A stretch of DNA of 32,000 bases from Panacagrimonas sp. (lineage in GTDB: Bacteria > Pseudomonadota > Gammaproteobacteria > Nevskiales > Nevskiaceae), in contig JBQTHL010000056.1 of assembly GCA_052389915.1 (NCBI GenBank), forward strand, positions 15,481 to 47,480. Reading direction: 5' to 3'. The position numbers and the translations under genes are program-made. The notes under the pieces are model-generated. The model searched no databases, was not told the origin of the DNA, and worked only from the letters and a program-made list of their open reading frames with translations. Shown here one piece after another: positions 5,522 to 28,424 of the stretch; the stretch's first letter is position 1, and every line of letters starts with the position of its first letter.

Positions 5522-5536
5522 CGTGGACGCTCCTGA

Positions 5537-6679: not shown

Positions 6680-6697
6680 GGTCGTTTACTCGGTTGC

Positions 6698-7852: not shown

Positions 7853-7951
7853 GGTGTTGCTCCAGTATGAAGAAAGGTGAATGAAGGTGCAGCGAATTCG
7901 GGATCGAGGTGTGTTTCGGCCCGGCGCGTTGGGCCGCGCGCGGCAGGCCTC

Positions 7952-9255: not shown

Positions 9256-9265
9256 GCGAAAGGGA

Positions 9266-9877: not shown

Positions 9878-9902
9878 TTCGGCATCCGCATTGCAGCGCG
9901 CG

Positions 9903-11060: not shown

Positions 11061-11062
11061 GC

Positions 11063-11887: not shown

Positions 11888-11916
11888 GGAGTCTGATTCC
11901 TGAGGGTTGAATGTGA

Positions 11917-12791: not shown

Positions 12792-12805
12792 GGAAGTGCT
12801 CGCCC

Positions 12806-13984
12806 TCAGACCTGGTACATGGTCACGACGCAGGCGCCGCCGAGGCCCAGGTTGTGCTGCAGCGCCGTGCGCGCACCCTTGACCTGGCGCGCCTCGGCCG
12901 TGCCGCGCAACTGCTGGACCAGCTCGGTGCACTGCGCAAGGCCGGTCGCACCCAGCGGATGACCCTTGGACAGCAGGCCGCCGGAGGGATTGGTGACGAC
13001 CCGACCGCCGTAGGTGTTGTCGCCGTCGTTGACCATCTTCTCGCCGCCACCATCCGGCGCCAGGCGCAGCGCCTCGTAGGTCAGCAGTTCGTTGGTGGCG
13101 AAGCAGTCGTGCAGCTCGACCACGCTGACGTCCTTGGGATCGACGCCGGAGGCGGCGTAGACCTGATCGCCCGCGGCGCGCGCCATGTCGAAGCCGACGA
13201 GCTGCATCATGTTGCGCGCCTCGAAGGTCTCCGGTGTGTCCGTGGTCATGGCCTGCGCGATGATCTTCACCCGCGAATCCAGGCTGTGGGCCTTGGCGAA
13301 TTTCTCGGAGCAGACGATCGCCGCCGCCGCGCCACAGGTGGGCGGACAGGCCATCAGGCGCGTCATCGGTCCGATCAGCACCGGCGAGGCCATGACTTCT
13401 TCCACGGTCACTTCCTTGCGGAACAGCGCCACCGGATTGTTCATGGCATGACGGCTGGCCTTGGCGCGGATCTTCGCGAAGGTTTCGGCCTTGGTGCCGT
13501 ACTTCTCCATGTGCGCCATGCCGGCGCCGCCGAAGTAGCGGATCGCGAGCGGTACATCGGGCTGGCCGACGAGTTCGTCGCAAACGGTGTCGAAGGGCTG
13601 GAAAGGACTCGGCCGGTCATGGAAGTACGAACCCAGCGCGCCCGGTTTCATCTGCTCGAAGCCAAGCGCGATGACGCAATCCGCCGCGCCGCTCTGCACC
13701 GCCTGGCGCGCGAGAAACAGCGCGGTCGATCCCGTCGAACAGTTGTTGTTGACATTGATCACCGGAATGCCGGTCATGCCCACCGGGTACAGCGCGCGCT
13801 GGCCGCAGGTGGAATCGCCGTACACGTAGCCGACATAGGCCTGTTGCACGAGTTTGTAATCGACACCCGCATCGGCCAGCGCGCGCCGGGCCGCTTCGGC
13901 GCCCATGTCGTAATACGGTTCGGAAGTACCGGGCTTGGTGAAGGGCACCATGCCCACGCCGGCGACGACGACGGTCTGACTCAT
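12806..13984 (-). CDS. SCPx/SCP2-type thiolase (lipid-transfer-protein-like 3-ketoacyl-CoA thiolase)
   Basis: 392 aa. Has the nucleophile block VINVNNNCSTGSTALF, ELHDCFATNELLTYEAL and GHPLGATGLAQ, so all thiolase catalytic residues are present. GGAGAG lies 7 nt upstream of the ATG. Confidence 0.9.
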   Translation of the reverse strand: MSQTVVVAGVGMVPFTKPGTSEPYYDMGAEAARRALADAGVDYKLVQQAYVGYVYGDSTCGQRALYPVGMTGIPVINVNNNCSTGSTALFLARQAVQSGAADCVIALGFEQMKPGALGSYFHDRPSPFQPFDTVCDELVGQPDVPLAIRYFGGAGMAHMEKYGTKAETFAKIRAKASRHAMNNPVALFRKEVTVEEVMASPVLIGPMTRLMACPPTCGAAAAIVCSEKFAKAHSLDSRVKIIAQAMTTDTPETFEARNMMQLVGFDMARAAGDQVYAASGVDPKDVSVVELHDCFATNELLTYEALRLAPDGGGEKMVNDGDNTYGGRVVTNPSGGLLSKGHPLGATGLAQCTELVQQLRGTAEARQVKGARTALQHNLGLGGACVVTMYQV

Positions 13985-14033
13985 TGTTGACTCTCCAGAG
14001 GGTTGAGATGGATGAGGATGACGCGAAGAAAGG

Positions 14034-14051
14034 GGGCCTCGATCACGAGGC
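14034..14051 (-). terminator. Possible intrinsic terminator/attenuator after the aldehyde dehydrogenase gene
   Basis: GGCCTCG-ATCA-CGAGGCC is a perfect 7-bp stem. Read on the minus strand it is followed by CCCTTTCTTC. It lies in the 106-nt gap between the ALDH stop (14091) and the thiolase start (13984). Confidence 0.35.
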
Positions 14052-14090
14052 CAAACACGGGAGCTGGGAAGGATCTCAGCACCGTTCTAG

Positions 14091-15548
14091 CTATGCGAAC
14101 CAGCGCAAGGTCATCGCGATGAGGCGCTTCACGCGTTCGGTGTAGGGTGGATAGAACATCCGAACCAGCCCGATGCGGGTATCGGCGACGGCGCGAGCGT
14201 GTGAGAACGTGCGGAAGCCGAACTCGCCATGCGTGCTGCCAAGGCCTGAATGGTTGACGCCACCGAACGGCAGCAGTGGGTGCAGGGCCTGCACGACGGT
14301 GTTGTTGACGCAGGCGCCACCCGAGGAGGTGCGGTCCAGCACGCGGCGGATGCGTGCACGGTCCTTGCCCCAGATGTACAGCGCGAGCGGCTTTTCGCCG
14401 CCGTTGATACTGTCGATGACCTCGTCGAGTTCGCCAAACCGGATCACCGGCAGCAGCGGCCCGAAGATCTCTTCCCGGAGGATGGCGGCGTCGTCCGGCA
14501 CTCGTTCCAGGATCGTTGGTGAGACGTAGCAGTGCTCTTCCCGCACGTCACCACCGACGGCGACGGTTGCGCCACGCTGACGCGCATCGTCCAGCAGTCG
14601 CCGCACGCGGGAGGTGTGGCGGGCGTTGACGATGCGCGCGAGATCGGGCGACAGGAAACGCGCCTCGTCATCCTTGCCGAAGACTTCCGCCAGCCGCTGG
14701 CGCAGCAGGTCCAGGAACTCGTCGGCGACCGAGGCGTGTACAAACAGGTGATCGGGCGCGATGCAGGTCTGCCCGTTGTTCATGAACTTGGACCAGCACA
14801 CGTTGTGCGCGGCCGCCTTGAGGTCGGCGCTGGCGTCGATGATGGTCGGGCTCTTGCCGCCCAACTCCAGGGTGACGCTGGTGAGATGGTGCGAAGCGGC
14901 AGCCATCACCACCTTGCCCAGAGCGGGTGCCCCGGTGAAAAAAATGTGGTCGAAGGGAAGGTCGAGCAGGGTCTTGGCGAGTTCTGCGTCGCCCTGGAAC
15001 AGCGCGACTTCTTCTGCAGGAAACGTCGCGTCGATGATTGTCTGCATCTGCGCCGACAGATGTGGCGTCATCTCTGAAGGTTTTACGATGGCGGTGTTGC
15101 CGGCGGCGAGCGCCAGCACCAGCGGGCAGAAGCTGAGATTCACCGGGTAATTCCACGGCGAAACGATCAGGCAGCGGCCGCGCGGCTGGTATTCGATGCG
15201 TCCCTGAGTGCCGGCCATCAGCGGCGAGAACCCGACGCGAGTCGGCTTCATCCAGCGCTTGAGTCTGCGCATGGCCATGTTCGCTTCGGATACGACGGTG
15301 AAGATTTCCGTCAGGTCCACTTCGACTTCCGGCTTGCGGAAGTCGGCCGCCGCCGCGGCGCGAATGGCGGGTGCTGCCGCCAGAACCGCGTCGCGCAGTC
15401 TGCGGATACGTTCGATCCGCTCCACGGCGGTGGATGTGCGCCAGCGCAGAGCGGTGGGCCGCTGCGCCTCGAAAGTGGCTAACACCCGTTCTGCCAGCGG
15501 GTCCTGGACCGGCGTGCTGGGCACCGGAATCTTCGAGGGAGCGTTCAC
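14091..15548 (-). CDS. NAD(P)-dependent aldehyde dehydrogenase, class-3/coniferyl-aldehyde-DH-like (fatty/aromatic aldehyde type)
   Basis: 485 aa. Contains SPWNYPVNLSF, IVKPSE, the catalytic Glu block LELGGKSP and the catalytic Cys block NNGQTCIAPDHLFVH. GTG start at 15548 has GGAG 8-11 nt upstream. It is divergent from the CuMMO operon. Confidence 0.93.
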   Translation of the reverse strand: MNAPSKIPVPSTPVQDPLAERVLATFEAQRPTALRWRTSTAVERIERIRRLRDAVLAAAPAIRAAAAADFRKPEVEVDLTEIFTVVSEANMAMRRLKRWMKPTRVGFSPLMAGTQGRIEYQPRGRCLIVSPWNYPVNLSFCPLVLALAAGNTAIVKPSEMTPHLSAQMQTIIDATFPAEEVALFQGDAELAKTLLDLPFDHIFFTGAPALGKVVMAAASHHLTSVTLELGGKSPTIIDASADLKAAAHNVCWSKFMNNGQTCIAPDHLFVHASVADEFLDLLRQRLAEVFGKDDEARFLSPDLARIVNARHTSRVRRLLDDARQRGATVAVGGDVREEHCYVSPTILERVPDDAAILREEIFGPLLPVIRFGELDEVIDSINGGEKPLALYIWGKDRARIRRVLDRTSSGGACVNNTVVQALHPLLPFGGVNHSGLGSTHGEFGFRTFSHARAVADTRIGLVRMFYPPYTERVKRLIAMTLRWFA

Positions 15549-15823: not shown

Positions 15824-15896
15824 CTGATCGTCGCCAGCGCCCTAGCTGGTGAAGCGCGCAGAATCGGGTCGCCATCCAGGTCAGGAGGTTTACATC

Positions 15897-16691
15897 ATGA
15901 GTTCCGTCAGCCAAAGCACGACATACCAGTCCCCCACGGCTCCCTGGGCCAAGCTTTTCCTGATTCTGGTCGGAGTTGGAATGCTTTACACCGGCTACCG
16001 GCTGTATCAAAACGCTACCGCCTTCACTGTTGGGCTCGACTACTTTTCGCCGGAATTCCAGAGCACTTGGATGATGCTGCTGTATATCCAGTTGCCGGTG
16101 CTGGTCGCGATGGGCACGGGAATCGTCGGATGGATCTGGCACACGCGTGATCGCCAGTTGGACAAGCTCGCGCCGGTCGAGGAGCTGCGACGCTACTTCG
16201 TGCTGCTCGGGTACATCATGATCTTCGCGATCGTGGCCTATCTGACGGCGTCGCCGTTCACCGAGGCGGATGCGGCCTGGCATCAGGTGACGGTGCGCGA
16301 TACCGATTTCACGCCCACCCACATCACGCTGTTCTACTTCGGCATTCCCATGTTCATCATGAGCGGTGTGGCGGCGTTCGCCTACGCCCGTACACGGCTG
16401 CCACAGTTCGCGAACAAGCTGTCCCTGCCGTTTGCGCTGGTGGTTGCAGGGCCGATCATGATCATGCCCAACCTGGGGCTGAACGAATGGGGTCACACGT
16501 TCTTCTACGCCGAGGAACTGTTCGCCGCGCCGATTCACTGGGGCTTCGTGCTGCTCGGCTGGGCCACGTTTGCGGCCGGCGGACTGGTGGTGCAGATCCT
16601 CACCCGGGTCGTCGAACTGACCAAGGTGATCGGTGAGCCCGCGCCGAGGGTGGAATCGGCGAAGGCGATGGCAGTCACAGCAGCAGCCTGA
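15897..16691 (+). CDS. xmoC: Copper membrane monooxygenase subunit C (PmoC/AmoC family)
   Basis: ORF 15849..16691 trimmed to ATG 15897 (MSSVSQ...), with AGGAGG at 15883-15888. Contains EADAAWHQVTVRDTDFTPTHITLFY (D-x3-H-x12-H) and PNLGLNEWGHTFFYAEELFAAPIHWGF (N-x3-H-x13-H). These have the same spacing as the PmoC CuC and CuD ligand sets of M. capsulatus. Confidence 0.93.
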   Translation: MSSVSQSTTYQSPTAPWAKLFLILVGVGMLYTGYRLYQNATAFTVGLDYFSPEFQSTWMMLLYIQLPVLVAMGTGIVGWIWHTRDRQLDKLAPVEELRRYFVLLGYIMIFAIVAYLTASPFTEADAAWHQVTVRDTDFTPTHITLFYFGIPMFIMSGVAAFAYARTRLPQFANKLSLPFALVVAGPIMIMPNLGLNEWGHTFFYAEELFAAPIHWGFVLLGWATFAAGGLVVQILTRVVELTKVIGEPAPRVESAKAMAVTAAA

Positions 16692-16883: not shown

Positions 16884-17657
16884 ATGAAAGCCGTAGATGA
16901 TCTCGACAGTTCTGCCTCGGGTGCTTACGGGCTCAGCTCGTCAAAAGAGCAGCACAAGGCCTACGTCCAGGCGGACCTGCTGGTCATCCCCCTGATCGTG
17001 CTGCTGTTCATGGGCATCTTCAGTTTTCACTTCGCCCTGCTCGTCGGCGACTGGGATTACTGGGTGGACTGGCGCGACCGCCGCTGGTGGCCGCTGGTGA
17101 CGCCGCTGGCGCTCTCAGTACTGCCGGGAGTGTTCGGGTTTCTGCTGTGGGACAAGCTTCGTTTGCCGCTGGGCGGGACGCTCACGATCCTGTGCCTGAC
17201 CCTCGCGGCCTGGATCAGCCGCTATCTCAATTTTTATCTGTTCGCGGATTTCCCGATGAACTTCGTGTGGCCCTCGACCTACATCGGGCTGGGTCTGATT
17301 CTGGACTGCATGCTGCTGCTCACTCGCAGCTTCTTCTGGACCGGGCTGTTCGGCGGGTTTGCCTTCGGTCTGCTGATCTACCCGCTCAACTGGTCGATGC
17401 TGGCGCCGTTCCAGGTGCCGTTGGAACTCAACGGCACCATGCTTACTGTGGCCGATCTCATGGGCTACGAGTACATCCGCACGGCGATTCCCGAATACGT
17501 CCGCATCATCGAGGAGTCAACGCTCAGAACCTTCGGGTCAGCGGTGACGCCGCTGACGGCAGTGTTCGCCGGATTCCTGAACATCATGAACTACTGGTTC
17601 TGGCTGTGGATCGGCTACCTGGGTGCCAAGGCACTCTGGATCCGGAAGATCGTCTGA
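16884..17657 (+). CDS. xmoA: Copper membrane monooxygenase subunit A (PmoA/AmoA family)
   Basis: 257 aa. GDWDYWVDWRDRRWWPLVTP, NFVWPST and YEYIRTAIPEYVRIIEESTLRTFG align by eye with PmoA blocks ([40 protein letters not shown]). GGAGG lies at 16874-16878. Confidence 0.95.
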   Translation: MKAVDDLDSSASGAYGLSSSKEQHKAYVQADLLVIPLIVLLFMGIFSFHFALLVGDWDYWVDWRDRRWWPLVTPLALSVLPGVFGFLLWDKLRLPLGGTLTILCLTLAAWISRYLNFYLFADFPMNFVWPSTYIGLGLILDCMLLLTRSFFWTGLFGGFAFGLLIYPLNWSMLAPFQVPLELNGTMLTVADLMGYEYIRTAIPEYVRIIEESTLRTFGSAVTPLTAVFAGFLNIMNYWFWLWIGYLGAKALWIRKIV

Positions 17658-17667
17658 GGGCGCGACC

Positions 17668-18906
17668 ATGAAACTCCTACGTGCTTTTCTGCTTCCGCTG
17701 CTCGCACTGTGCGCGGGCTACACCCCGACGTTGCTGGCGCACGGCGAACGCGCGCAGATGCCGCAGTTGCGCATGCGCACGGTTCACTGGATCGACGTGC
17801 AGGCCTCCGCTTCCAAGCTGGCCATCAACGACATCGTCAAGATCAGCGGCAAGTTCATGCCGTCGAAGTACTGGCCGCACCATGTGAACTCGATCGAGGA
17901 AACGGCCTTCCTCAACATCGGCGTGCCCGGCCCTGCGTTTGTGCGTCTGGACTCGCGCGTCAACGGCGTGCCGATGATCCGCTCCACTTCGTTTCGCAAG
18001 GGCGAGACCTACGATTTCGAGATCACGCTCAAGGCGCGCAAGGTGGGTCGTTATCACGTCCACACCGTCATCAATGTCGAAGGCGCCGGCCCCATGATCG
18101 GCCCCGGCATGTGGGTCGAAGTGGCGGGCGACGAAGCGGCCTTCCAGAACACCGCCAAGACCCTGCTTGGCGAAACCATCGATCTGGAAACCTACGGCCT
18201 GGGCAACGTCATGTTCTGGTCCGCGCTGTGGTTTGCGGTGGGCCTGTCCTGGTTCATTTACTGGCTGACCAAGTGCCCCATCGTCGTGCCCCGCTTCAAG
18301 CGCACCGCAGAACTGGGCGTCGAGGCCGATCAGATGATCACCCCGATGGACCGGCGCATCGGCGGCATCTTCCTGGTGCTGACCCTGAGCCTGATCGTCG
18401 GCGGCTATGTCTACGCCCAGGAAAAATGGCCCATCACCACCCCTCTCCAGACCGGCAAGATCGACGTTCCCCCGCTCGATCAGCCGCCGACCCCGATCTC
18501 CATCAAGCTCATCGAAGCCCGGTACCGTATTCCCGGCCGCAGCTTCAGGATGGAATTCGACGTCATCAACAACAGTGATCGCCAGGTGACCATCGGCGAA
18601 TTCGCCGCCGGCAACCTGCGCTTCATCAACGCCAAGGTGCTCGACGTCAAACCCAAGGACGAGCACGACCTGGTGGCTTCCGATGCCCTGCGCGTGGAAG
18701 GTGGGCCGGTTGCTGCGGGAGCCACTCAGCGCGTCGTGATCTACGCCGACGACGCCATGTGGGAAACCGAGCGCATGACCACCATGATTTCCTCGCCCGA
18801 TGCGGTCGTGGCCGGCGTGCTGTTCTTCTTCGAGGAAGGCGGCAAGCGGCACTTGGTGGAATTTGGCGGCCCCATGATTCCCGACTTCGGTATGAGCAAG
18901 AGCTGA
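17668..18906 (+). CDS. xmoB: Copper membrane monooxygenase subunit B (PmoB/AmoB family), secreted precursor
   Basis: ORF 17623..18906 trimmed to ATG 17668. The signal peptide MKLLRAFLLPLLALCAGYTPTLLA is followed by HGERAQMPQLRMRTVHWID. YHVHTVINVEGAGPMIGPG aligns along its length by eye with M. capsulatus PmoB (HGEKSQAAFMRMRTIHWYD; WHVHTMMNVQGGGPIIGPG). It has two central TM helices and a C-terminal cupredoxin-like half. Confidence 0.95.
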   Translation: MKLLRAFLLPLLALCAGYTPTLLAHGERAQMPQLRMRTVHWIDVQASASKLAINDIVKISGKFMPSKYWPHHVNSIEETAFLNIGVPGPAFVRLDSRVNGVPMIRSTSFRKGETYDFEITLKARKVGRYHVHTVINVEGAGPMIGPGMWVEVAGDEAAFQNTAKTLLGETIDLETYGLGNVMFWSALWFAVGLSWFIYWLTKCPIVVPRFKRTAELGVEADQMITPMDRRIGGIFLVLTLSLIVGGYVYAQEKWPITTPLQTGKIDVPPLDQPPTPISIKLIEARYRIPGRSFRMEFDVINNSDRQVTIGEFAAGNLRFINAKVLDVKPKDEHDLVASDALRVEGGPVAAGATQRVVIYADDAMWETERMTTMISSPDAVVAGVLFFFEEGGKRHLVEFGGPMIPDFGMSKS

Positions 18907-19523
18907 TGATGCGTCGTCTCGCCCGCGTCCTGGTGTTCGGGTCCGCCGTGCTCGCAACCGCGCCTGCAGGCGCGCACGGCGGCGTGTCCATGGAAGACGA
19001 CAATTGCATCATGAAGATCGGTGCGATGACCGCGCATTTCACCGGCTACCAGCCGGAAAAGCGCGCGACGCAGGAGTTCTGCGAAGACATCCCGGAACTC
19101 GGGCGCGCCATCATTGTCATTGACTACGTCAGCGCCGCGCTGCGTCAGTATGAAGTCGAGTTCCGCGTGCTCAGAGATACTAAGGATCTAAAGTCGCGGG
19201 GACGCTACGAAGACCTCGGAACGCCGGCGGACATCGCAGCAGCCACCCTGATCCACGTGCCGCCGCAGGTGTATCCGCGAGGCACGCTGACCTTCGATCA
19301 GGGCTTCGATGCGCCGGGCTGGTACATCGGGATGATCACCGCCAAGGATCCAGCCACCGGCACGTTGTTGCACTCGGTGTTCCCGTTCAAGGTCGGCGTG
19401 CACAGCCTGTGGCGCTACGCCCCCGCCTTCATGATCGTTTTCGCGCTCGCAGGACTGGCTTATCGACTCACCGGTCGCAAGACAGCTACAGCTAAAGCTA
19501 AAGCTAAAGCAAAAGCAACATGA
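18906..19523 (+). CDS. PmoD/AmoD-like membrane-anchored periplasmic protein (putative copper protein; family assignment tentative)
   Basis: ORF 18759..19523 trimmed to ATG 18906, which overlaps the xmoB stop (TGATG). The signal peptide MMRRLARVLVFGSAVLATAPAGA is followed by HGGVSMEDDNCIMKIGAM. After that comes a soluble domain of about 150 aa, one C-terminal TM helix (YAPAFMIVFALAGLAYRL) and a basic tail. This architecture and its position directly after subunit B match PmoD. Confidence 0.65.
   Translation: MMRRLARVLVFGSAVLATAPAGAHGGVSMEDDNCIMKIGAMTAHFTGYQPEKRATQEFCEDIPELGRAIIVIDYVSAALRQYEVEFRVLRDTKDLKSRGRYEDLGTPADIAAATLIHVPPQVYPRGTLTFDQGFDAPGWYIGMITAKDPATGTLLHSVFPFKVGVHSLWRYAPAFMIVFALAGLAYRLTGRKTATAKAKAKAKAT
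19485..19520 (+). repeat. Hexanucleotide tandem repeat: GCTACA (GCTAAA)x3 GCAAAA GCAACA
   Basis: Read directly. It encodes the tail ATAKAKAKAKAT of the PmoD-like protein and runs into the copC ATG (19520). Its codon choice is AT-rich and atypical for this high-GC window. Confidence 0.85.
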
Positions 19524-19900
19524 GGACGCAGTCACCCCGCATGGCTTTTTGGCTACTCATCGCATGCTCGCTCGGCGCTTACGGATCTGCTGTGTTCGCG
19601 CATGCAGGGCTGGTCAGTTCGGAACCCGGCCGGCGTGCAGTGCTGGCCGCGGCTCCGAAAGAAATTAGATTGTGTTTCAACGAAAACGTCGAAGCGAAGT
19701 TTTCCAAGGTCAGCTTGTACAACGCCGATGGCACCGAGATTCCGCTCGGTGAGCTGAAGGCCGACCCGCAAAAGCCCGCCTGTCTGACTGCGTCGGTCGA
19801 TTCGCTGCCCGGCGGAAGCTACACGATCAAGTATCGTGTTCTGTCGGTCGATGGCCATGTCGTGGATTACGGCTACGGGTTCAAATTAAGCCTGCCCTGA
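19520..19900 (+). CDS. copC: CopC-domain periplasmic copper-binding protein
   Basis: 126 aa. The signal peptide ends ...SAVFA and is followed by HAGLVSSEPG (N-terminal His, as in the HxxLxxSxP CopC start). The C-terminal YRVLSVDGHVVDYGYGF carries the D/H ligand block. ATGA overlap with the upstream gene. Confidence 0.9.
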   Translation: MRTQSPRMAFWLLIACSLGAYGSAVFAHAGLVSSEPGRRAVLAAAPKEIRLCFNENVEAKFSKVSLYNADGTEIPLGELKADPQKPACLTASVDSLPGGSYTIKYRVLSVDGHVVDYGYGFKLSLP

Positions 19901-19907: not shown

Positions 19908-21869
19908 GTGATCGAATTCCTGTCCGCGGCCTCTCGACTCATCGCGACGGCCGGCGCAGCGTGGATCATCGGTTCGACCTGCTTCAGCCTATGGTGCGCC
20001 CGGATGGATCCGCAGCGTGCAGCCCTGCGCGCGGCGCTGCCCCTGCTGATCGCCGTCGGTCTGGTGGTTCTGGGCCATGCCGGCCTGATGTGGACCCAGG
20101 CGCTCTCGCTCGCCCCCCTCGGCTCCGGTTCGACCGATTGGGAAAGCCTGATCAACGGCACCCATGTCGGGCGAGTGTGGCGGATACGCGCCAGCGTCGC
20201 CGTCCTGCTGCTGTTGTCGGCGCTCGTGGCGACGACATGGGGGCGGGCGCGATGGGCTTGCGCCTCGATGGCGGCGACGTATCTCGCGCTCGGACCCTGG
20301 GGTGGACACGCAGCCGGCGCGGAATCGGCTTGGCAGGTGATGCTGCCCAATGTCATCCATGTTCTCGCCATCTCGGTCTGGGTCGGCGCCCTGCCGTCCT
20401 GGTTCGTGGCGGTGCGACGTTTTGCTCGCGCCGATCCGTCCGCGCTGCCCACGCCGGTTCTTGCGGCCGCCCTGGAGCGATTCTCTCGGTTGGCGATGGT
20501 GTTGATGATCGTCATCGTCGTCACGGGCGTCTGGCTGGCGGATCTCTACATCGACACGCAGGGGGACCTGCTGGGGACGCGCTACGGCGCGCTGATTCTC
20601 GGAAAGCTCGGCTTGCTGGCACTTGCGCTGCTGTTCGCCAACCGGTTGCGAACACGGTTTCTTCCCATGCTGAGATCGGCCGGCGAGGCGACTGGTCAGC
20701 GTCGCCTTGCCGCCTCGGCCTTGCGTCATTTCTGCCCTGAACTGGCCGCGGCTTCCGGCGTCCTGATCTGTGCAGCCTGGCTGGCGCAGACCACCCCAGC
20801 ACTGCACGAGCCCGCGCCGAAGTGGTGGCTGCCGTTCCGCTGGTCATTAGACGCAACCTGGCCGGATTCGTCGCTGCGGGTGTGGTTTCTGGCAGCCTTC
20901 GCAGCCTTGATCCTCGCGGGAGCCGCGGCAACCGGCTCGCGACGTAAAACGCTGCGCATTCCCTCAATGCTGTTGGCGGTAGCCGCGACCAGCGTGTTGG
21001 CCTGGGCGTTCGCCGTCCCGGCTTATCCGAATACCTATCGGCGCTCCCAGGTGCCGTATCTGACGCTGTCCGTGGCCGGCGGGCGCGCGCTGTTCGCCGA
21101 GCACTGCACGGCCTGCCACGGCGCGGGAGGACTCGGAGACGGACCGTTGGCAGCGAAGCTGCCGAAGCCGCCGGCAAATCTGAGCGAGCCGCACACGGCG
21201 CTGCATACGGCTGGCGACATGCACTGGTGGCTCACACACGGTATTCCCGAAAGCGGAATGCCCGCCCTGGGTGCTGTGCTCTCCGAGGACGACCGCTGGG
21301 ACCTGATCAACTTCATGCGCGCCTTCTCGCAAGGTTTCGAAAGCCGGGTGCTGCGCGCCCGCGTGGTTCCCGGCCTGGCCTGGCTTGGGGCGATCAATTT
21401 CTACATCGAGGGCGTGCCGGGACCGGGGGAACTCAAGGGCTATCGCGATACACACAATGTCTTGCTGACCTTTCTCGGCGGACCACATGCCGAAGCTCGC
21501 GCGCGAACGCTCGCCGCTGCGATGCCTGAGTTCCAGTCGCGCCGCACGCAGATTCTCGCGGTGCCGTTGGGCGATGTTCGCCTGCCTGCCGACTTGCCTT
21601 ATCCCGTGCTGAGCACCGCCGCTGCCGAGCTCTGGTCCGCCTACGAGTTGCTCGCGCGCACGGTCGGCGACCGCGGCCTGCCGGACCGGCTGGGCATGGA
21701 TTGGACGGATGCGGAATTCCTCATCGATCGTTTCGGCTACGTGCGTGCGCGCTGGATTGCGCAGGACGACCCGGAGGGGTGGACCGACCCCGTCAGGCTG
21801 TACCCGGAACTGGATCGGCTCAATGCCGAACCGCGCTTGCGTCCGCCCCCGGACGATCACATTCACTGA
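19908..21869 (+). CDS. copD: CopD-family membrane protein fused to a c-type cytochrome domain and a C-terminal thioredoxin-fold-like domain lacking CxxC
   Basis: 653 aa with a GTG start 7 nt after the copC stop. The N-terminal ~300 aa are polytopic (CopD-like), followed by two more TM helices. The haem motif is FAEHCTACHGAGGLGDGP (Cys400/Cys403/His404, nt 21105-21119), with GIPESGMPA as the likely axial Met. The C-terminal ~170 aa contains NVLLTFLGG...ILAVPLG...AEFLIDRFGYVRARWI, which resembles the peroxiredoxin/TlpA fold but has no Cys pair. Confidence 0.85.
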   Translation: MIEFLSAASRLIATAGAAWIIGSTCFSLWCARMDPQRAALRAALPLLIAVGLVVLGHAGLMWTQALSLAPLGSGSTDWESLINGTHVGRVWRIRASVAVLLLLSALVATTWGRARWACASMAATYLALGPWGGHAAGAESAWQVMLPNVIHVLAISVWVGALPSWFVAVRRFARADPSALPTPVLAAALERFSRLAMVLMIVIVVTGVWLADLYIDTQGDLLGTRYGALILGKLGLLALALLFANRLRTRFLPMLRSAGEATGQRRLAASALRHFCPELAAASGVLICAAWLAQTTPALHEPAPKWWLPFRWSLDATWPDSSLRVWFLAAFAALILAGAAATGSRRKTLRIPSMLLAVAATSVLAWAFAVPAYPNTYRRSQVPYLTLSVAGGRALFAEHCTACHGAGGLGDGPLAAKLPKPPANLSEPHTALHTAGDMHWWLTHGIPESGMPALGAVLSEDDRWDLINFMRAFSQGFESRVLRARVVPGLAWLGAINFYIEGVPGPGELKGYRDTHNVLLTFLGGPHAEARARTLAAAMPEFQSRRTQILAVPLGDVRLPADLPYPVLSTAAAELWSAYELLARTVGDRGLPDRLGMDWTDAEFLIDRFGYVRARWIAQDDPEGWTDPVRLYPELDRLNAEPRLRPPPDDHIH

Positions 21870-21887: not shown

Positions 21888-22388
21888 ATGCAACGATCCC
21901 CCGCTCTTTTTATTCTCGCGCTGCTCGCCAGCAGCGTATCGCTTGGCGCGCGGGCAGGCGGCGACGCGGCGCACGATCACCATCAGCATCACCAAGGGCA
22001 CGGACAACACCCGGCCGATGGCGCGGCGGGCAAGGGTGCCACCGAGGTTCCACCGCTGCGCATCCTGTTTCCCGAGTCCGGCGCCAAGGTCGGGACGCAG
22101 CTTGCCGTGGTGTTCGAAACGCCCGGCGAAATGGCACGGCTGACCATGAGCGCGCCGGTGGTGGGTACTCATCTGCATATCGAAACCGACGGTATTTCCC
22201 TGATGCCGAGTGAGAACCAGCTCATCCGGCTCGGTGGAAACCGTTACGTGTTCGTGTTCGACCTGCCGGTCAGCGCGGGCGAGCGCAGCCTGCGGGTGTA
22301 TTGGTCGGATGGCATGCACCGGACCATCGATTCGAGCATGCAGACGGTCAAGGTGATCGTCGAGGGCGCGATCAGTCCTGGAAAGTGA
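21888..22388 (+). CDS. Secreted His-rich protein, DUF4399-like (putative periplasmic metal binding)
   Basis: 166 aa with AGGAG RBS. The signal peptide MQRSPALFILALLASSVSLGARA is followed by the His cluster HDHHQHHQGHGQH (nt 21972-22010). The blocks VGTHLHIETDG and GERSLRVYWSDGMH resemble the DUF4399 GHHHL..D / GEH.L.L...D..H pattern as I remember it. Confidence 0.6.
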   Translation: MQRSPALFILALLASSVSLGARAGGDAAHDHHQHHQGHGQHPADGAAGKGATEVPPLRILFPESGAKVGTQLAVVFETPGEMARLTMSAPVVGTHLHIETDGISLMPSENQLIRLGGNRYVFVFDLPVSAGERSLRVYWSDGMHRTIDSSMQTVKVIVEGAISPGK

Positions 22389-22611
22389 AGTAGGAAGGGA
22401 ACGGCGGCAGGAGAATCCTGTCGCGCGCCTGCGCGTCCGACGCTTCGCAGGTCGACGCTGATCGCTTGCGCACGGCGTCCACCGCCCGAGCGCGTCCACG
22501 AGGCAGGCACCCGCTGGTCGGGGCGCTTCGCCCGCCGGTCCGAACTGGCATCAATCCAATCTATTCCCGGTATGATGTTGTTCTAACAAACATTTGGTAT
22601 GGAGAGTAAGG

Positions 22612-25110
22612 ATGTTTTGGAGTAGGTCTGCATGTCGCTGGTCAATCATTCCTGCGTTGCTGCTCGCAGGGCCGGCCGCGAACGCCGTCGAGTACGACTT
22701 CTCGGCAGGAGGCTTTGATTTTTCGTCAGTGTTGAACAATACCCTCACGCTTGGCGCTGCGTGGAGAATCGAGGGTCGATCAAATGATCTGGTCGGCAAG
22801 TCCAACCTCGATCCCGGGGTTTGTTCCGGTCCCTACCAGTCCTGCCAGGGCCTGCACCGCCTGCAGAACTTTCCCGCCCAACGGCTGGCGTCTGCGCCGG
22901 GTATGGCCTCCATCAACTTCGACGACGGCAATCTCAACTACAACAAGGGCGACATCATCCAGGCGCCGCTCAAGCTCTCGCAAGACCTTACCGTCAGCTT
23001 CGGAGACTACGGCATCTTTGTTCGAGGACTTGGCATTTTCGACCAGGCGAACTACTTCGACTTCCGCAATTTCTACCCCAACCAGATCACCGCCGAGAAC
23101 GTTGGCAGCGTGGGTATTGTCGGCAGCCCGACGTCCAACCGGTACCTGCCGCGGGTGTACGGTCCTGGGGCTCCGGTTCGCAGTGACCGGGCGGAAGACG
23201 AGGCGCAAGAAATCGGGCTCAGATACGACCTGCTCGATGCCAATTTCTACGGGAGTCTGCCTTTTGTCGGCGAACGCGAACTGACCTTTCGGCTCGGCCG
23301 GCAGACAGTGAATTGGGGCCAGAGCACGGTCGCGGTCGTCAACAGCGTCAACCAGGCGCAGCCGGTGAACGCGAACAGCCTTTACCGGCTCGGTTTCGGT
23401 CTGCTGGAGGAGCTCTTCGTCCCGGTGGGCATGGCGCGCTTCAGCACAGAACTGGTGAACGACGTCGGCGTCGAGATCTACTACCAGTACGAATGGGACC
23501 CGGTCGAGATTCCGACGCCTGGCAGCTACATGTCCTTCGTCGACATCGGTACCGACAATCTGCGCGGTACGGTCAACGCGGCGTTCGGTGGCGCGGCGGA
23601 CGACCCCGATCACGTCGGTGCGCCGCTGGACAACCCGCTCACCCTGATCACGCCAACCACCTTGACCCTGGATCGGCGCGGCGACAACGAGGCCCGCGAC
23701 CAGGGCCAGTACGGCATCGGCCTGAAGTATTACGCCGAGGAACTCAATAACGGCACCGAGTTCGCGGCTTACTTCATGAACTACCATTCGAAGCTGCCGT
23801 ACGTGAGTTTCTATTCCACCGATCCCAGTTGCGCCCGTCGCGAGGGCAGTTCCCGGGGCATCGACGCCACGAACACTCTCGAATTCCTGGCCGGGTGTCC
23901 AAACCTACCGGTCACCGCGCCGTCGGCGTCATCGCAACTGGCTCTCGATCTGGTCACTCTGGCGGCACAGAGGCCGGGCGCGCTCGCTGATCTGGGCGCC
24001 GGGACATTGGACCTGGGAGCCATTCTGGGCGGCGTGGGCGGACTATTGCTGCCGCAGCCTGGTCAGCAAATCAGTGACGCCGTGCCGCTGGACACGGCCC
24101 AGATCCAGCTCGAATACCCCGAAGACCTGAAGATGTTCGGGTTCAGCTTCACCACCACCGCTGGCGAGCTGTCCCTGCAGGGCGAGCTGTCCTACCGACC
24201 GAAACTTCCGCTGCAGGTTGCCCTGATCGATCTGGCCTTTGCCTCCTTCGGTCCCACTCTGACCCGCTGCCACGACCGGAACCTGGGTTGCCTGGGCGCC
24301 TCTGCGGGACTCGGGTTCAACGAGGCGGGGAGCTACGTGGTCTACGACGGCAACAACTTCACCGACGCCAGCGGCAACAACCCCTACCCTGATGCAATCA
24401 ATCTGGTCGTGGGCGCGGCGCCGGGTTCGGCGCGTTCCTTTCCCAACTTCATCGTGCCCTACCGCGGCGGTGTGGTAGGCGAGAATCCGCCGAACAGCTA
24501 CATCCGCGGCTGGATTCCTGGAAAGGTGGCGCAGTACAACTTCGGAGCGACGCAGGTGCTCGGCCCGAACGAGAACTGGATTGCTGCGGACCAGGTGATC
24601 CTGCTCTACGAACTGGCGGCAACCCATGTGCTCAACATGCCGGATTTCGACAAGCTGCAGATCGAAGGCCCGCTGACGGCGACCACGCACGCCAGCGCCG
24701 GCGCCGATGGCAGTGGTGCGGATGGATCGCGCCTAGCCTGTTCGACCAATCCCTCGTGCTCGGTGGGTCCGGACGGACTGCGCTTCAACCCTTACCAGGC
24801 ACCGCGTAGTGCATTCGCCGATGCATTTTCCTGGGGCTATCGCATCGTTGGGCGCATCGCCTACGAGTCGGTGTTCCCTTCGATCAGCATCCAGCCGTTG
24901 TTCATCTGGTCACAGGACATCGGTGGCAACTCGCCGGGACCGGCCGGCAATTTCGTGGAAGGCCGCAAGACCCTGAACTTCCTGCTGGAAACGCGCTACG
25001 GGAAGTCCTACTCGTTCACTATCGCCTACAACAGTTTCTTCGGCGGCGGTAAGGACAACCTTTACGAGGATCGCGACAACCTCGGCTTTTATGTCAAGTA
25101 CCAGTTCTGA
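22612..25110 (+). CDS. DUF1302-family outer-membrane beta-barrel protein
   Basis: ORF 22594..25110 trimmed to ATG 22612, with GGAGAG at 22601-22606. The signal peptide ends ...LLLAGPAANA. LTLGAAWRIEGRSNDLVG and INFDDGNLNYNKGDIIQAPLKLSQDL are typical DUF1302 N-terminal blocks. The C-terminus ...LGFYVKYQF ends in an aromatic residue, as OMP signatures do. Confidence 0.8.
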   Translation: MFWSRSACRWSIIPALLLAGPAANAVEYDFSAGGFDFSSVLNNTLTLGAAWRIEGRSNDLVGKSNLDPGVCSGPYQSCQGLHRLQNFPAQRLASAPGMASINFDDGNLNYNKGDIIQAPLKLSQDLTVSFGDYGIFVRGLGIFDQANYFDFRNFYPNQITAENVGSVGIVGSPTSNRYLPRVYGPGAPVRSDRAEDEAQEIGLRYDLLDANFYGSLPFVGERELTFRLGRQTVNWGQSTVAVVNSVNQAQPVNANSLYRLGFGLLEELFVPVGMARFSTELVNDVGVEIYYQYEWDPVEIPTPGSYMSFVDIGTDNLRGTVNAAFGGAADDPDHVGAPLDNPLTLITPTTLTLDRRGDNEARDQGQYGIGLKYYAEELNNGTEFAAYFMNYHSKLPYVSFYSTDPSCARREGSSRGIDATNTLEFLAGCPNLPVTAPSASSQLALDLVTLAAQRPGALADLGAGTLDLGAILGGVGGLLLPQPGQQISDAVPLDTAQIQLEYPEDLKMFGFSFTTTAGELSLQGELSYRPKLPLQVALIDLAFASFGPTLTRCHDRNLGCLGASAGLGFNEAGSYVVYDGNNFTDASGNNPYPDAINLVVGAAPGSARSFPNFIVPYRGGVVGENPPNSYIRGWIPGKVAQYNFGATQVLGPNENWIAADQVILLYELAATHVLNMPDFDKLQIEGPLTATTHASAGADGSGADGSRLACSTNPSCSVGPDGLRFNPYQAPRSAFADAFSWGYRIVGRIAYESVFPSISIQPLFIWSQDIGGNSPGPAGNFVEGRKTLNFLLETRYGKSYSFTIAYNSFFGGGKDNLYEDRDNLGFYVKYQF

Positions 25111-25123
25111 GGTGCGGACGCGG

Positions 25124-25144
25124 GCAGTGGTCAGTTTCCACTGC
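25124..25144 (+). terminator. Weak hairpin after the DUF1302 gene (GCAGTGG-TCAGTTT-CCACTGC)
   Basis: A 7-bp stem 14 nt after the stop. There is no U-tract, so terminator function is uncertain. Confidence 0.25.
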
Positions 25145-25160
25145 GCGGAAGCGCGAGCGA

Positions 25161-25190
25161 TGGAAAGGCAAATCGCAATGTGCGTATACT
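25161..25190 (+). promoter_or_regulatory. Putative promoter of the TonB2-type operon (TGGAAA - 18 nt - TATACT), overlapped by the shared 12-mer and an inverted repeat
   Basis: The hexamers were read by eye (4/6 and 5/6 to consensus). GCAATGTGCGTA (25175-25186) overlaps the spacer and the -10. AATGTGC (25177-25183) and GCACATT (25197-25203) form a 7-bp inverted repeat with a 13-nt spacer. Confidence 0.3.
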
Positions 25191-25309
25191 CACTCTGCAC
25201 ATTTAAAAGAGACTTCGAGCCGGCCTGAGAGGGATCCGTGCATTGAAGTTTCGATCAGTGCGGTGGCTTGCCACCGCGCGTTTGTCGGCGGGGAGGAGTC
25301 CCCTGGAAC

Positions 25310-26092
25310 ATGATCGTATTCCCAAAGTGGAAGGCTGTCGCCGCGCGGATGCTCGGCCTGTCGCTGGCGGTTGCCGTGCCCTGCGCGCCGGCTCAGGACG
25401 CTGCCGGCAAGGCGCTGGACGCGGTGGTCGATGGCAACCGCGCCGCGAGAACGTCCCAGCAGAGGGTCGATAGCCTCGACGATCAGACCAAGTCCATGCT
25501 CGAGCGCTATCGCGCCGCGAGCTGGCAGGCGCAGCAACTCACGGTCTATGCCAAGCAGCTCGGCGAACTGGTGTCCGCGCAGGAGGGCGAACGCAGCTCG
25601 ATCGAGCGTCAGATCACCGAGATGGAGCGCACCGAGCGCGAGCTGCTGCCGCTGATGCTGCGCATGGTCGAGGGGCTGGAGAAATTCATCGCGCTGGACC
25701 TGCCGTTTCTGGCGACCGAGCGCCGCGAGCGGCTGGACACGCTGAAGAAGCTCATGTCCGATCCTGAGGCGAACAACGCCGAGAAGTTCAAGCGCCTTCT
25801 GGAAGCCTGGCAGATCGAATCGGAGTACGGACGTTCGATCGGCACCGAGCGCGCCGAGGTCGAGGGCCGCACCGTCGATGTGCTGCGTCTGGGGCGCACG
25901 GCGCTGTACTACCTGTCGGCCGATGGCAAGCAGGCGGGAACCTGGAACAGCAGCAGCGGCGCCTGGGAGGCACTCCCGCATCAGCACGTCGCTCAGGTGC
26001 GGCATGGCCTGCGCATGGCGCGGGAAACGGCCGCGCCGGATCTGCTGAGGTTGCCTGTCGCTGCCGCCGCTGCGGCCGGAGCCGCGCCATGA
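25310..26092 (+). CDS. DUF3450-family periplasmic coiled-coil protein (TtpB-like TonB2-system component)
   Basis: ORF 25268..26092 trimmed to ATG 25310, with GGGAGGAG at 25291-25298. It has a signal peptide and a long coiled coil. The blocks ELLPLMLRMVEGLEKFIALDLPFL and EKFKRLLEAWQIESEYGRSIG are typical of DUF3450. ATGA overlap with the next gene. Confidence 0.8.
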   Translation: MIVFPKWKAVAARMLGLSLAVAVPCAPAQDAAGKALDAVVDGNRAARTSQQRVDSLDDQTKSMLERYRAASWQAQQLTVYAKQLGELVSAQEGERSSIERQITEMERTERELLPLMLRMVEGLEKFIALDLPFLATERRERLDTLKKLMSDPEANNAEKFKRLLEAWQIESEYGRSIGTERAEVEGRTVDVLRLGRTALYYLSADGKQAGTWNSSSGAWEALPHQHVAQVRHGLRMARETAAPDLLRLPVAAAAAAGAAP

Positions 26093-27477
26093 GGCGTGAC
26101 TGCGCATTCTGGCGCGGGCTCATCGCGGCGGCGTTGATGCTCGGCACCGGCACCGGCGCCTTGCACGCGCAGGCGCCTTCGCCCTCGCAGAAAGGCATGG
26201 ACGAACTGCTCAAGCAGATCCGCCAGGGGACGCAGGAGGCCGCCAAGCTCAACGCAGAACGCGAGCAGCGTTTCCTGCGCAACAAGAACGAGCAGGCCGC
26301 TTTGCTGGCCAAGGCCGAGGCGGATCGCGCTGCCGCCGGCGCGCGGGCCGATCAGGCAAAAGCGCAATTCGCGGCCGGCCAGGCCCAGATCGCCGAACTC
26401 AAGAAGCGCCTGACCGAGCGCCTGGGCGACAGCGGGCAGATGTATGCGGCGATCGCGCAGTCCGCCGGCGAGTTCCGCAGCCAGATCGCCGGCTCGCTGG
26501 TTTCGGCGCAATACCCGGATCGCGCCGAGTTTCTGGATCGCATCGCACAGGCGGGCGAGGTGCCGGGCGTGGCCGACCTGGAGCAGCTCTGGTTCCTGTA
26601 CGCACAAGAGGCCGCCGAGAGCGGGCGGGTGGTGCGCTTTCAGGCCGAGGTGCTCGATGCCTTGGGAGAAAAATCGAAGACCGAGGTGATCCGGGTGGGC
26701 CAGTTCACGGCGCTGACCGAAGAGGGCTATTTGACCCTGCAAGCCGGGACCGCAGCGCTCGCACTGCTGCCGCGCCAGCCCGACGGCAATTCGGGACTCG
26801 TCGAGGATTTCAGCGCGGCGGGCGAGGGCTTGCACACGGTGCTGATCGACCCCTCGCGCGGCGACCTGCTGCGCAAGATCGCCGAGCGGCCCACCACGAT
26901 GGAGCGCATCCATCAGGGTGGCGAGGTGGGCTACGTCATCATCGCCATCGGTGTGATCGGCGCGGTGCTCGCGGCCTACCAGTTCGGGTACCTGCTGCTG
27001 GTGGGTGTGAGGGTGCAGCGGCAGTTGCGGGACGTGGCGCAGCCGCGCGAGGACAATCCGCTGGGTCGCGTGCTCGCCAGCCTGAAGATCGACGCCACGC
27101 AGGATCCGGAAGTGCTGGAGACGCGCCTGTCCGAGGCGGTGCTGCGCGAGACGCCCAAGCTGGAGCGATTCCAGTCGCTGCTGCGCATGATCGTCGCTGC
27201 GGGTCCGCTGCTGGGCCTGCTCGGCACGGTGATCGGCATGATCATCACCTTCCAGGTCATCACCGAGGTCGGTGCGGGCGATCCCAAGCTGATGGCCGGT
27301 GGCATCTCGCAGGCCATGATCGCGACGGTGCTCGGCCTGATCATCGCTATCCCCTTGCTGTTCGTGAACAGCTTCCTGATGACCCGTTCGCGCAGCATCA
27401 CGCAGGTTCTCGACGAGCAGGCCGCCGGGCTGCTGGCGCAGCGCCTGGAAGCGGCAGGCGGGCGCCAGCATGCTTGA
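26089..27477 (+). CDS. Long MotA/TolQ/ExbB-family proton-channel protein with large N-terminal periplasmic coiled-coil domain (TtpC-like)
   Basis: 462 aa. The C-terminal channel block is AAGPLLGLLGTVIGMIITFQ...GGISQAMIATVLGLIIAIPLLF. The N-terminal ~270 aa are extra-membranous and coiled-coil-rich. Confidence 0.85.
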   Translation: MRRDCAFWRGLIAAALMLGTGTGALHAQAPSPSQKGMDELLKQIRQGTQEAAKLNAEREQRFLRNKNEQAALLAKAEADRAAAGARADQAKAQFAAGQAQIAELKKRLTERLGDSGQMYAAIAQSAGEFRSQIAGSLVSAQYPDRAEFLDRIAQAGEVPGVADLEQLWFLYAQEAAESGRVVRFQAEVLDALGEKSKTEVIRVGQFTALTEEGYLTLQAGTAALALLPRQPDGNSGLVEDFSAAGEGLHTVLIDPSRGDLLRKIAERPTTMERIHQGGEVGYVIIAIGVIGAVLAAYQFGYLLLVGVRVQRQLRDVAQPREDNPLGRVLASLKIDATQDPEVLETRLSEAVLRETPKLERFQSLLRMIVAAGPLLGLLGTVIGMIITFQVITEVGAGDPKLMAGGISQAMIATVLGLIIAIPLLFVNSFLMTRSRSITQVLDEQAAGLLAQRLEAAGGRQHA

Positions 27478-28009
27478 GCTGATCGTCCAGTCGTTCACGG
27501 AGCAGTACGACACGCTCGGCGAGTTCCTCGATGCGGGCGGCTGGGTGACGCGCTGGATCCTCGCGGCCTGTGCCGTCCTGCTCACCGTCGTGTTCGAGCG
27601 CCTCTGGTATCTGTGGCGCATCTATCCGCGCGTGCGTGCCGCGACCCTAGCCGGGTGGAACGCGCGCAGCGAGCGCCACTCCTGGGTCGCGCACCGCATC
27701 CGCACGGCGCTGATCAGCCAGTTGCGCATGGGCCTGGAATCCGGCCTGCCCATCATCAAAGTGATGGTGCCGATGGCGCCGCTGCTCGGCCTGCTCGGCA
27801 CCGTGATGGGCATGCTGCAGGTGTTCGACGCGATGGCCTTCAGCAAGGGCGGCGACACGCGCGCGATGGCCGACGGCATCTCGCACGCGATGATCGCGAC
27901 CATGGCCGGGCTGGTGGTGAGCGTGATTGGGCTGTTCTTCAGCAACCTGTTCGCCTCGCGGGTGCGGGTTGAGTCGGAACGGCTGAATGATTTGATTGCG
28001 CCGGGCTGA
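27470..28009 (+). CDS. exbB: MotA/TolQ/ExbB proton-channel protein
   Basis: 179 aa. Contains MAPLLGLLGTVMGMLQVF...DGISHAMIATMAGLVVSVIGLFF. It overlaps the upstream gene by 8 nt. Confidence 0.9.
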   Translation: MLELIVQSFTEQYDTLGEFLDAGGWVTRWILAACAVLLTVVFERLWYLWRIYPRVRAATLAGWNARSERHSWVAHRIRTALISQLRMGLESGLPIIKVMVPMAPLLGLLGTVMGMLQVFDAMAFSKGGDTRAMADGISHAMIATMAGLVVSVIGLFFSNLFASRVRVESERLNDLIAPG

Positions 28010-28016
28010 TGCGCAC

Positions 28017-28421
28017 ATGAAATTCCGCCGCCACAACCCGCCTCCCGAAGACACCGGCATCGACCTCGCGCCGATGCTCGACTTCGTGATGAACCTTCTG
28101 ATCTTCTTCATCATCGCTGCGGCCTTCGTGCAGGAGTCCGGCATCCGCGTGAACAAGCCGGCCGCGAAGACCGCGCAGCAGGAGGACAAGACCAGCATCT
28201 TCGTCGCCATCTCGGCGACCAATGAGATCTGGATCAATCGCGAGCGCGTCGACATCCGCCGCCTGCGCACCGAAATCGAACGCGTGCGCCGCGACAAGCC
28301 CAAGGCCGTGGTCGTGATCCAGGCCGACCAGGACGCGCGTGCGGGGCTGATGGTGGAAGCGATGGATCAGGCGCGGCTGGCCGGCGTGCCGGACGTGTCG
28401 ATCGCGGCGACACCGAAATAG
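28017..28421 (+). CDS. exbD: ExbD/TolR biopolymer transport protein
   Basis: ORF 27996..28421 trimmed to ATG 28017. Contains IDLAPMLDFVMNLLIFFII (TM helix with the conserved Asp), then ...VVIQADQDARAGLMVEAMDQARLAG. Confidence 0.9.
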   Translation: MKFRRHNPPPEDTGIDLAPMLDFVMNLLIFFIIAAAFVQESGIRVNKPAAKTAQQEDKTSIFVAISATNEIWINRERVDIRRLRTEIERVRRDKPKAVVVIQADQDARAGLMVEAMDQARLAGVPDVSIAATPK

Positions 28422-28424
28422 CGC

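Follow-up and report, generated by a model that had tools for sequence, protein, structure and literature searches.

The stretch analyzed here, a 32,000-nucleotide (nt) segment of Panacagrimonas sp. contig JBQTHL010000056.1 (positions 15,481 to 47,480; hereafter, the window), contains a gene for a 653-amino-acid (aa) protein in which a CopD core is fused to a cytochrome c domain and to a Cys-less thioredoxin-fold domain (19908..21869, + strand). The gene, copD*, is part of an operon with the order xmoCAB–pmoD-like–copC–copD*–ORF166, all on one strand. Directly upstream, Pfam profiles matched the three subunits of a copper membrane monooxygenase (CuMMO): subunit C, xmoC (15849..16691, +; AmoC, E = 4.9e-83), subunit A, xmoA (16884..17657, +; AMO, E = 4.4e-79), and subunit B, xmoB (17665..18906, +; Monooxygenase_B, E = 1.8e-121). 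These matches place the fusion gene inside a CuMMO operon, the setting proposed by an earlier reading of the DNA (herein referred to as the original prediction). The order xmoCAB–pmoD–copC–copD was previously described as the "extended pmo/amo operon" of alphaproteobacterial methanotrophs and betaproteobacterial ammonia oxidizers and was linked to copper (PMC6189053).

Proteins with these three parts are known. In an analysis of approximately 50,000 proteobacterial CopD sequences, about 4% carried a cytochrome and a Sco1/thioredoxin-like domain, including the CopD of Methylosinus trichosporium OB3b (PMC11923076), and the JGI automatic annotation of relatives names all three parts of the fusion. 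The three-domain architecture is thus already on record, and the novelty implied by the original prediction does not hold. The gene is a further member of a known CopD subfamily, ordinary for its family, whose function is not characterized. New here are the comparative results, namely the linkage to CuMMO, the Cys-less state of the C-terminal domain across most of the family, the near-invariant His-x-His tail, and the PmoD-like and ORF166 partners.

Architecture of the fusion protein

The open reading frame (ORF) begins with a GTG codon 7 nt past the copC stop codon and has 653 codons. Its nearest database homologues are of equal length and share the N-terminus MIE(F/L)LSA. Invariant columns were taken from an alignment of 47 full-length fusion homologues with 39-93% identity (A1). 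An AlphaFold2 (AF2) model of the whole fusion, built on the alignment, has a mean predicted local distance difference test score (pLDDT) of 88 and a predicted template-modeling score of 0.77, and its helices agree with hydropathy. The ORF is real, and its domain pattern is not due to chance. The description of a single frame encoding CopD, two extra transmembrane (TM) helices, heme c, and a C-terminal domain was borne out by Pfam, NCBIfam, and AF2.

The CopD core (aa 1-297; 19908..20798, +) comprises helices TM1-TM8. The NCBIfam profile copper_CopD matched aa 5-297 with 101 bits, below the equivalog cut-off of 195, and Pfam CopD (PF05425) matched aa 187-292 (E = 6.8e-17) with 62.2 bits, above the cut-off of 32.1. 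Two periplasm-facing His residues of the core, His134 (nt 20307-20309) and His151 (nt 20358-20360), are invariant in all 47 sequences of A1. In the pairwise alignment with Escherichia coli YebZ they correspond to His135 and His154, whose replacement lowers or abolishes copper uptake (PMC11923076). By this alignment, the core keeps the YebZ-type uptake histidines, and copper uptake by the fusion is putative. The E. coli proteins YebZ and YobA, which form part of the AZY operon copper importer, resemble the system found here in the 8-TM core, 25% identical between YebZ and the fusion, and in both essential His residues. Unlike the fusion, YebZ has no extra TM helices, heme, or thioredoxin-fold domain, and the third partner of the E. 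coli system is YebY (DUF2511) rather than ORF166.

Hydropathy and AF2 together gave 10 TM helices, consisting of the 8-TM core, TM9 (aa ~323-341), and TM10 (aa ~354-372); the AF2 boundaries of the last two are 321-343 and 347-367. According to hydropathy, the positive-inside rule, and AF2, these extra helices (aa ~320-372; 20865..21023, +) would bring the chain back to the periplasm. The loops rich in Lys and Arg (aa 168-194, 245-274, and 342-353) are all on one side of the membrane, and the topology is therefore predicted to be N-out, with residues 373-653 in the periplasm. Both the heme and the C-terminal domain are thus predicted to be periplasmic, in agreement with the original placement of the heme domain. 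The periplasmic loop that follows TM8 contains a further invariant residue of A1, His300.

The class I cytochrome c domain (aa 375-477; 21030..21338, +) was identified with Pfam, PDB, and Foldseek. Pfam Cytochrom_C matched aa 390-471 (E = 1.3e-12), and Cytochrome_CBB3 matched there as well (E~1e-12). The heme motif CTACH (aa 400-404) occupies nt 21105-21119, the interval originally given; the six-residue form CTACHG, under which it was named, would end at 21122. The axial Met451 (nt 21258-21260) is located in a GMPA motif. The CxxCH residues Cys400, Cys403, and His404 and the distal Met451 are invariant in 47 of 47 homologues, and a further invariant motif of the domain, PHTALHT, holds His429 and His433 (A1). 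From these residues, the fusion is predicted to bear a mono-heme class I cytochrome c with an attached, His/Met-ligated heme.

The best solved match to this domain is cytochrome c552 (CytC552) of Thioalkalivibrio paradoxus (PDB 9vr0/7o9u; E = 1.5e-15). In Foldseek, the two superimpose with a template-modeling score of 0.73, a root-mean-square deviation of 1.8 Å, and 42% identity. CytC552 is a solvent-exposed mono-heme cytochrome that accepts electrons from the tri-copper thiocyanate dehydrogenase, and its His83 hydrogen-bonds heme propionate-7 on the proposed electron path (PMC9456337). The match places the heme domain among those that exchange electrons with copper centers. CytC552 and the fusion are alike in the single heme, the His/Met ligation, and the propionate His, CytC552 His83 being paired with the invariant His429 of the fusion in the HMMER alignment. 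Unlike the fusion, CytC552 is soluble, stands alone, serves a copper enzyme as electron acceptor, and has His-rich disordered termini.

The C-terminal domain (aa 478-640; 21339..21827, +) is a Cys-less thioredoxin-fold domain of the peroxiredoxin (Prx)/TlpA type, as identified by the family profile, AF2, and Foldseek. The window domain matched Pfam AhpC-TSA (PF00578) with E = 0.041 and 14.3 bits, under the cut-off of 26; the same profile matched 25 of 33 family members, with a best E of 9.5e-8. Searched against PDB, the family profile retrieved Mycobacterium tuberculosis AhpE (1e-4) and Bacillus subtilis ResA (1e-3). Residues 478-653 were also modeled alone with AF2 (pLDDT 88.8), and Foldseek matched this model to Bcp/Prx proteins (Bcp4, Prx1, AhpC-like), ResA/TlpA-like proteins, and glutathione peroxidases (GPx) with E~2e-6 and a probability of 1.0. 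Template-modeling scores were 0.55-0.74 across the thioredoxin-fold matches and 0.72-0.74 versus ResA. The fold of the modeled domain is accordingly assigned to the Prx class. Pfam SCO1-SenC matched only 1 of the 33 members (E = 0.002), and no Sco protein was found in the Foldseek top 50. The window domain is thus closer to Prx/ResA than to Sco1, the likeness given for OB3b CopD in its published description.

No Cys was found past residue 403 of the window protein. Among 340 C-terminal regions of the family, neither the CxxC of TlpA/ResA/CcmG nor the CxxxC of Sco1/SenC was found, which rules out Sco-like and TlpA-like chemistry. The region of PxxxTxxC or CxxC is replaced by a shortened, variable loop without the peroxidatic Cys. 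Judged by these sequences, the thiol chemistry of the domain is lost. The original description of an AhpC/TlpA-type thioredoxin fold without a cysteine pair was therefore confirmed by the family profile, AF2, and Foldseek, and the domain in fact has no Cys at all. The exception in the family is a Beijerinckiaceae clade (Methylocella/Methylocapsa-like; P0139, P0177, P0197, P0218, P0229, and about 100 others) with two Cys in the C-terminal domain. One of them occupies the position of the Prx active site (..LFSC..), the other belongs to ..APGxxC(D/E)P.., and the tail of this clade ends with HSQH in place of HxH. The fusion of Methylocapsa acidiphila itself has neither of the two clade cysteines.

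The Arg, Tyr, and Trp residues of the domain that are invariant in A1 lie within ..EFLIDRFGYxRARW... The fold is shared with Prx (AhpC/TSA, Bcp, AhpE), ResA/TlpA/CcmG, and GPx, and the β-hairpin FLIDRxGYxR of the fusion is typical of this class. Unlike all of these proteins, the fusion domain has no peroxidatic Cys or CxxC, its active-site loop is shortened, and a poly-Pro tail with HxH is added. This tail, PPPDDHIH (21843..21866, +), was found by alignment and ends with His651-x-His653. Both His residues of the ..PPPDDHxH end are invariant in 47 of 47 aligned homologues, and a terminal HxH is shared by all 120 close homologues and by 124 of 141 representatives. The distant relative P0302 (544 aa) has a Met/His-rich extension beyond the usual C-terminus (..YVHEPIGGDMDMSNMNHDMSDMKM), which would fit the idea of the tail as a copper-binding site.

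The profile of the C-terminal domain was searched against 1.84 billion representatives in clusters at 50% identity. It retrieved 466 clusters at E≤1e-3, of which 291 reached E≤1e-10. In the 150 best matches listed of the 466 clusters, no carrier of the domain other than this fusion was found, the domain was always at the C-terminus, and full-length proteins had 600-750 aa. A stand-alone secreted form was considered for matches of ~205 aa, in which the domain starts from residue 28. These sequences begin at the axial-Met motif (MPGF/MPAF) and are therefore fragments of the fusion.

Partner genes and distribution of the fusion

The gene copC (19520..19900, +; Pfam CopC, E = 3.5e-21), immediately upstream of the fusion, encodes a periplasmic protein that binds Cu(II) and shares 36% identity with E. 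coli YobA. CopC retains the DGH motif and the His that follows the signal peptide at the mature N-terminus, and its mature form is free of Met; this combination points to the Cu(II)-only type of CopC.

The PmoD-like protein (18906..19523, +; 205 aa) has a periplasmic domain between a signal peptide and a C-terminal TM helix. It was identified by phmmer against PmoD (PDB 6cpd; E = 4.6e-14 over aa 33-162), and no Pfam or NCBIfam profile matched it. The published copper motif Cx7MxH reads C-x6-M-x2-H in this protein (NCIMKIGAMTAHF), with Cys and His kept and Met shifted by one. CuMMO genomes without PmoD were described as those of species oxidizing neither methane nor ammonia (PMC6189053). PmoD-like homologues were also found in hosts that are neither methanotrophs nor nitrifiers.

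The gene ORF166 (21888..22388, +), conserved 3' of the fusion, encodes a protein with a signal peptide, a His-rich linker (HDHHQHHQGHGQH), and an immunoglobulin (Ig)-like domain. The protein had no Pfam match of its own, and the PDB profile search was empty; DUF4399 weakly matched 7 of 17 members of its family. It is 49% identical to the product of the gene downstream of the fusion in Bradyrhizobium. In this family, HLH, MP, W, and H are invariant in the Ig-like domain, and the linker is His- or His/Met-rich and of variable length. In the extended pmo operon of M. trichosporium OB3b, the position after copD, held here by ORF166, is occupied by a pCuAC gene (PMC6189053). From its sequence, ORF166 is probably a periplasmic copper-binding protein. 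Contig CBDDRR010000275.1 (uncultured bacterium s12_90; locus L004) is 99-100% identical to the window. Between the two, the linker of ORF166 (L004, 12131-12484) differs by a two-histidine indel (HHQHHQ vs HHQHHHHQ), and the His tract is therefore length-variable.

No copA/copB or cus resistance genes were found in the operon. Its flanks (4370-15548, -; 22594-31788, +) contain genes for fatty-acid and aldehyde catabolism. Four of them encode acyl-CoA dehydrogenases, and others a thiolase and an α/β hydrolase; an aldehyde dehydrogenase gene is divergent from xmoC. Downstream of the operon are genes for DUF1302, DUF3450, ExbB-type, and tetratricopeptide repeat (TPR)–DUF1329 proteins. The catabolic flanking genes point to a hydrocarbon-oxidizing rather than a methane- or ammonia-oxidizing CuMMO, and the window enzyme is probably a hydrocarbon monooxygenase.

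The genomic context of the fusion was surveyed with one genome per GTDB species at the best 80 of 138 relatives, using tblastn with the window operon proteins within 10 kb. The genes xmoCAB were found at 55 of the 80 loci, and at 39 of the 42 loci with ≥8 kb of sequence on both sides. CopC is adjacent to the fusion at 75 of 80 loci, a PmoD-like protein is present at 64, and an ORF166-like protein at 52. Most of the related loci repeat the window order, in which CuMMO CAB is followed by the PmoD homologue, copC, and copD. Hosts of the fusion include Nevskiales, several Bradyrhizobium, Xanthobacteraceae, Polaromonas, Rhodoferax, Methylibium, Solimonas, and Nitrospira, and the closest named relative of the window is a Nevskia metagenome-assembled genome (74%). 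The 39 well-flanked CuMMO-linked loci span Nevskiales, Bradyrhizobium, Polaromonas, Rhodoferax, Methylibium, Nitrospira, and others. The complete xmoCAB–pmoD-like–copC–fusion–ORF166 operon was observed in Bradyrhizobium uaiense, B. forestalis, B. cajani, B. niftali, B. frederickii, and Bradyrhizobium sp. Ai1a-2 (loci L017, L018, L021, L022, L025, and L028), with subunits 41-48% identical to those of the window. In Methylocapsa acidiphila, a lone pmoC and a pmoD-like gene are near the fusion.

The module was also found away from CuMMO genes. The Bradyrhizobium genome carrying the B. diazoefficiens protein has copC–fusion–ORF151 without CuMMO (L001, 9633-12489). The neighbors of this module are genes for a pyrroloquinoline quinone (PQQ)-dependent dehydrogenase and a cytochrome c, and a molybdenum hydroxylase cluster lies downstream of it. 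The Bradyrhizobium copy was considered as a candidate PcuE of a pcuABCDE operon and was rejected, as the locus consists of copC–fusion–ORF151 and has no PCuAC-type gene. Further copies away from CuMMO are in Bradyrhizobium manausense, Cycloclasticus, and two distant metagenomic representatives; another distant representative is again within an amoCAB-type operon. Some relatives, distant ones included, stand with copC alone. The fusion is thus mostly CuMMO-linked, yet not exclusive to CuMMO loci. Widespread occurrence without CuMMO, which according to the original prediction would argue for generic copper homeostasis, was not found, as 39 of the 42 well-flanked loci have xmoCAB; strict confinement to CuMMO operons was not found either.

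As compared with the three-domain CopD subfamily on record (PMC11923076), the window fusion has the same three parts, the copC neighbor, the extended pmo-type operon, and matches to both Pfam CopD and Cytochrome_CBB3/Cytochrom_C. Relatives in Methylocapsa, a methanotroph, and in Nitrospira, where amoCAB-like genes lie alongside, share the layout. The window fusion differs in its host, an uncultured Nevskiales-like gammaproteobacterium whose CuMMO is probably a hydrocarbon monooxygenase.

Candidate role in copper supply

The evidence is about evenly poised for and against a reading in which the fusion is a CopC-fed, redox-coupled protein for copper acquisition or delivery in the extended CuMMO operon, and not the reductant of the monooxygenase. 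Under this reading, CopC would supply the fusion with Cu(II) on its periplasmic side, and the tethered heme, fed by the periplasmic cytochrome c pool, would change the oxidation state of the bound copper. Reduction to Cu(I) is favored, as it would free copper from the tight Cu(II) site of CopC. The thioredoxin-fold domain, together with the rigid poly-Pro/HxH tail, would serve in copper hand-off or docking and would not be a thiol enzyme. Copper might then pass through CopD, or to PmoD and ORF166, and would finally metallate the monooxygenase. The module would be a general copper-supply device that was recruited repeatedly into CuMMO operons; since it also exists without CuMMO, its basic job cannot require the monooxygenase. 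Copper handling alongside CopC, suggested in the original prediction, fits the adjacency of CopC, its Cu(II)-only type, and the conserved YebZ-type histidines, and is plausible.

Two known systems offer partial parallels. YcnJ of B. subtilis, a CopC–CopD–YtkA fusion, is likewise built on a CopD importer core, and its extracytoplasmic C-terminal domain assists in copper delivery to a membrane cuproenzyme (PMC13344008). It differs in having an N-terminal CopC and a C-terminal YtkA, in contrast to the separate CopC and the C-terminal cytochrome c/thioredoxin fold of the protein analyzed here, and its clients are heme-copper oxidases, in contrast to CuMMO for the fusion. The second parallel comes from cbb3 oxidase assembly. 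There, the membrane-bound cupric reductase CcoG converts Cu(II) to Cu(I) to feed the assembly of a cuproenzyme; unlike the fusion, it uses Fe-S clusters on the cytoplasmic side, and the two are not homologous.

Several points weigh against CopC-fed, redox-coupled copper delivery. Without the pull of a strong Cu(I) acceptor, a typical high-potential class I heme is a poor reductant of CopC-held Cu(II). The closest solved cytochrome, CytC552, takes electrons from Cu(I), that is, in the reverse direction (PMC9456337), and the oxidation state of the copper moved by CopD is not known (PMC11923076). By analogy with CytC552 His83, His429 may only hydrogen-bond the heme propionate, and it need not be a copper ligand. 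The 80 surveyed loci are those most similar to the query, and the figure for CuMMO linkage is thus biased toward this clade. Finally, no paper testing the function of a three-domain CopD, and no experiment on any member of the subfamily, was found in the literature.

A narrower version of copper delivery assigns the whole device to CuMMO. The Cys-less domain with its poly-Pro/HxH tail would be an unrecognized, His-based periplasmic module for copper hand-off, which together with the heme would make CopD a redox-gated transporter dedicated to CuMMO metallation, possibly via PmoD and ORF166. We consider this version possible though doubtful. If it is true, the fusion would be the missing copper-loading machinery of enzymes of the particulate methane monooxygenase (pMMO)/ammonia monooxygenase (AMO) type.

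Electron flow in the opposite direction was considered as well. The heme could act as a cuprous oxidase that converts periplasmic Cu(I) to Cu(II), either loading CopC, PmoD, or CuMMO or detoxifying Cu(I). Both the resemblance to CytC552, which accepts electrons from a Cu(I) center (PMC9456337), and the Cu(II)-only site of the CopC found here would suit such a reaction. The operon, however, has no copA/copB or cus resistance genes, and the CopD core is of a demonstrated importer type (PMC11923076). To our knowledge, high-potential heme c proteins do not serve as dedicated cuprous oxidases. Cuprous oxidation is improbable.

The heme relay to the monooxygenase, raised in the original prediction, would make the tethered cytochrome c the physiological electron donor of CuMMO, or a part of the donor chain, with CopD as an anchor or docking platform. 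This reading would account for the tight synteny with xmoCAB across phyla, found at nearly all well-flanked loci, and for a membrane-tethered heme predicted to be periplasmic. Additionally, the reductant of pMMO-type enzymes is unresolved, and "providing reducing equivalents" is listed among the open roles of operon accessory proteins (PMC6189053). However, two Bradyrhizobium genomes, Cycloclasticus, and two distant metagenomic representatives have the copC–fusion(–ORF166) module with no CuMMO nearby, and the most constant neighbor of the fusion is CopC. The copper-uptake histidines of CopD are invariant, although a mere anchor would not need them. Gammaproteobacterial pmo/amo operons are described as lacking copCD (PMC6189053), and the fusion is therefore not a universal CuMMO component. 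Because the module exists without CuMMO, CopC is its steadiest partner, and gammaproteobacterial pmo/amo operons lack copCD, the electron-donor reading is weakened; a role as monooxygenase reductant is unlikely, even more so than cuprous oxidation.

It is highly improbable that the thioredoxin-fold domain is still a redox enzyme (a peroxidase, a thiol-disulfide reductase, or a Sco-type Cys-ligated chaperone) supplied with electrons by the heme: the fold, the weak profile matches to AhpC/TSA, ResA/TlpA, and GPx, and the two Cys of the Beijerinckiaceae clade would favor it, but nearly all other clades are Cys-less in this domain, the PxxxTxxC region is reduced to a shorter, variable loop, and for the window protein it is refuted, as no Cys follows residue 403.

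Two questions are at stake, namely how pMMO/AMO-type enzymes acquire copper and in which oxidation state copper is moved by CopD. In the CopD subfamily analyzed here, a redox cofactor is hard-wired onto an importer that travels with CuMMO across at least two phyla, and the fusion therefore offers a natural experimental handle on both.

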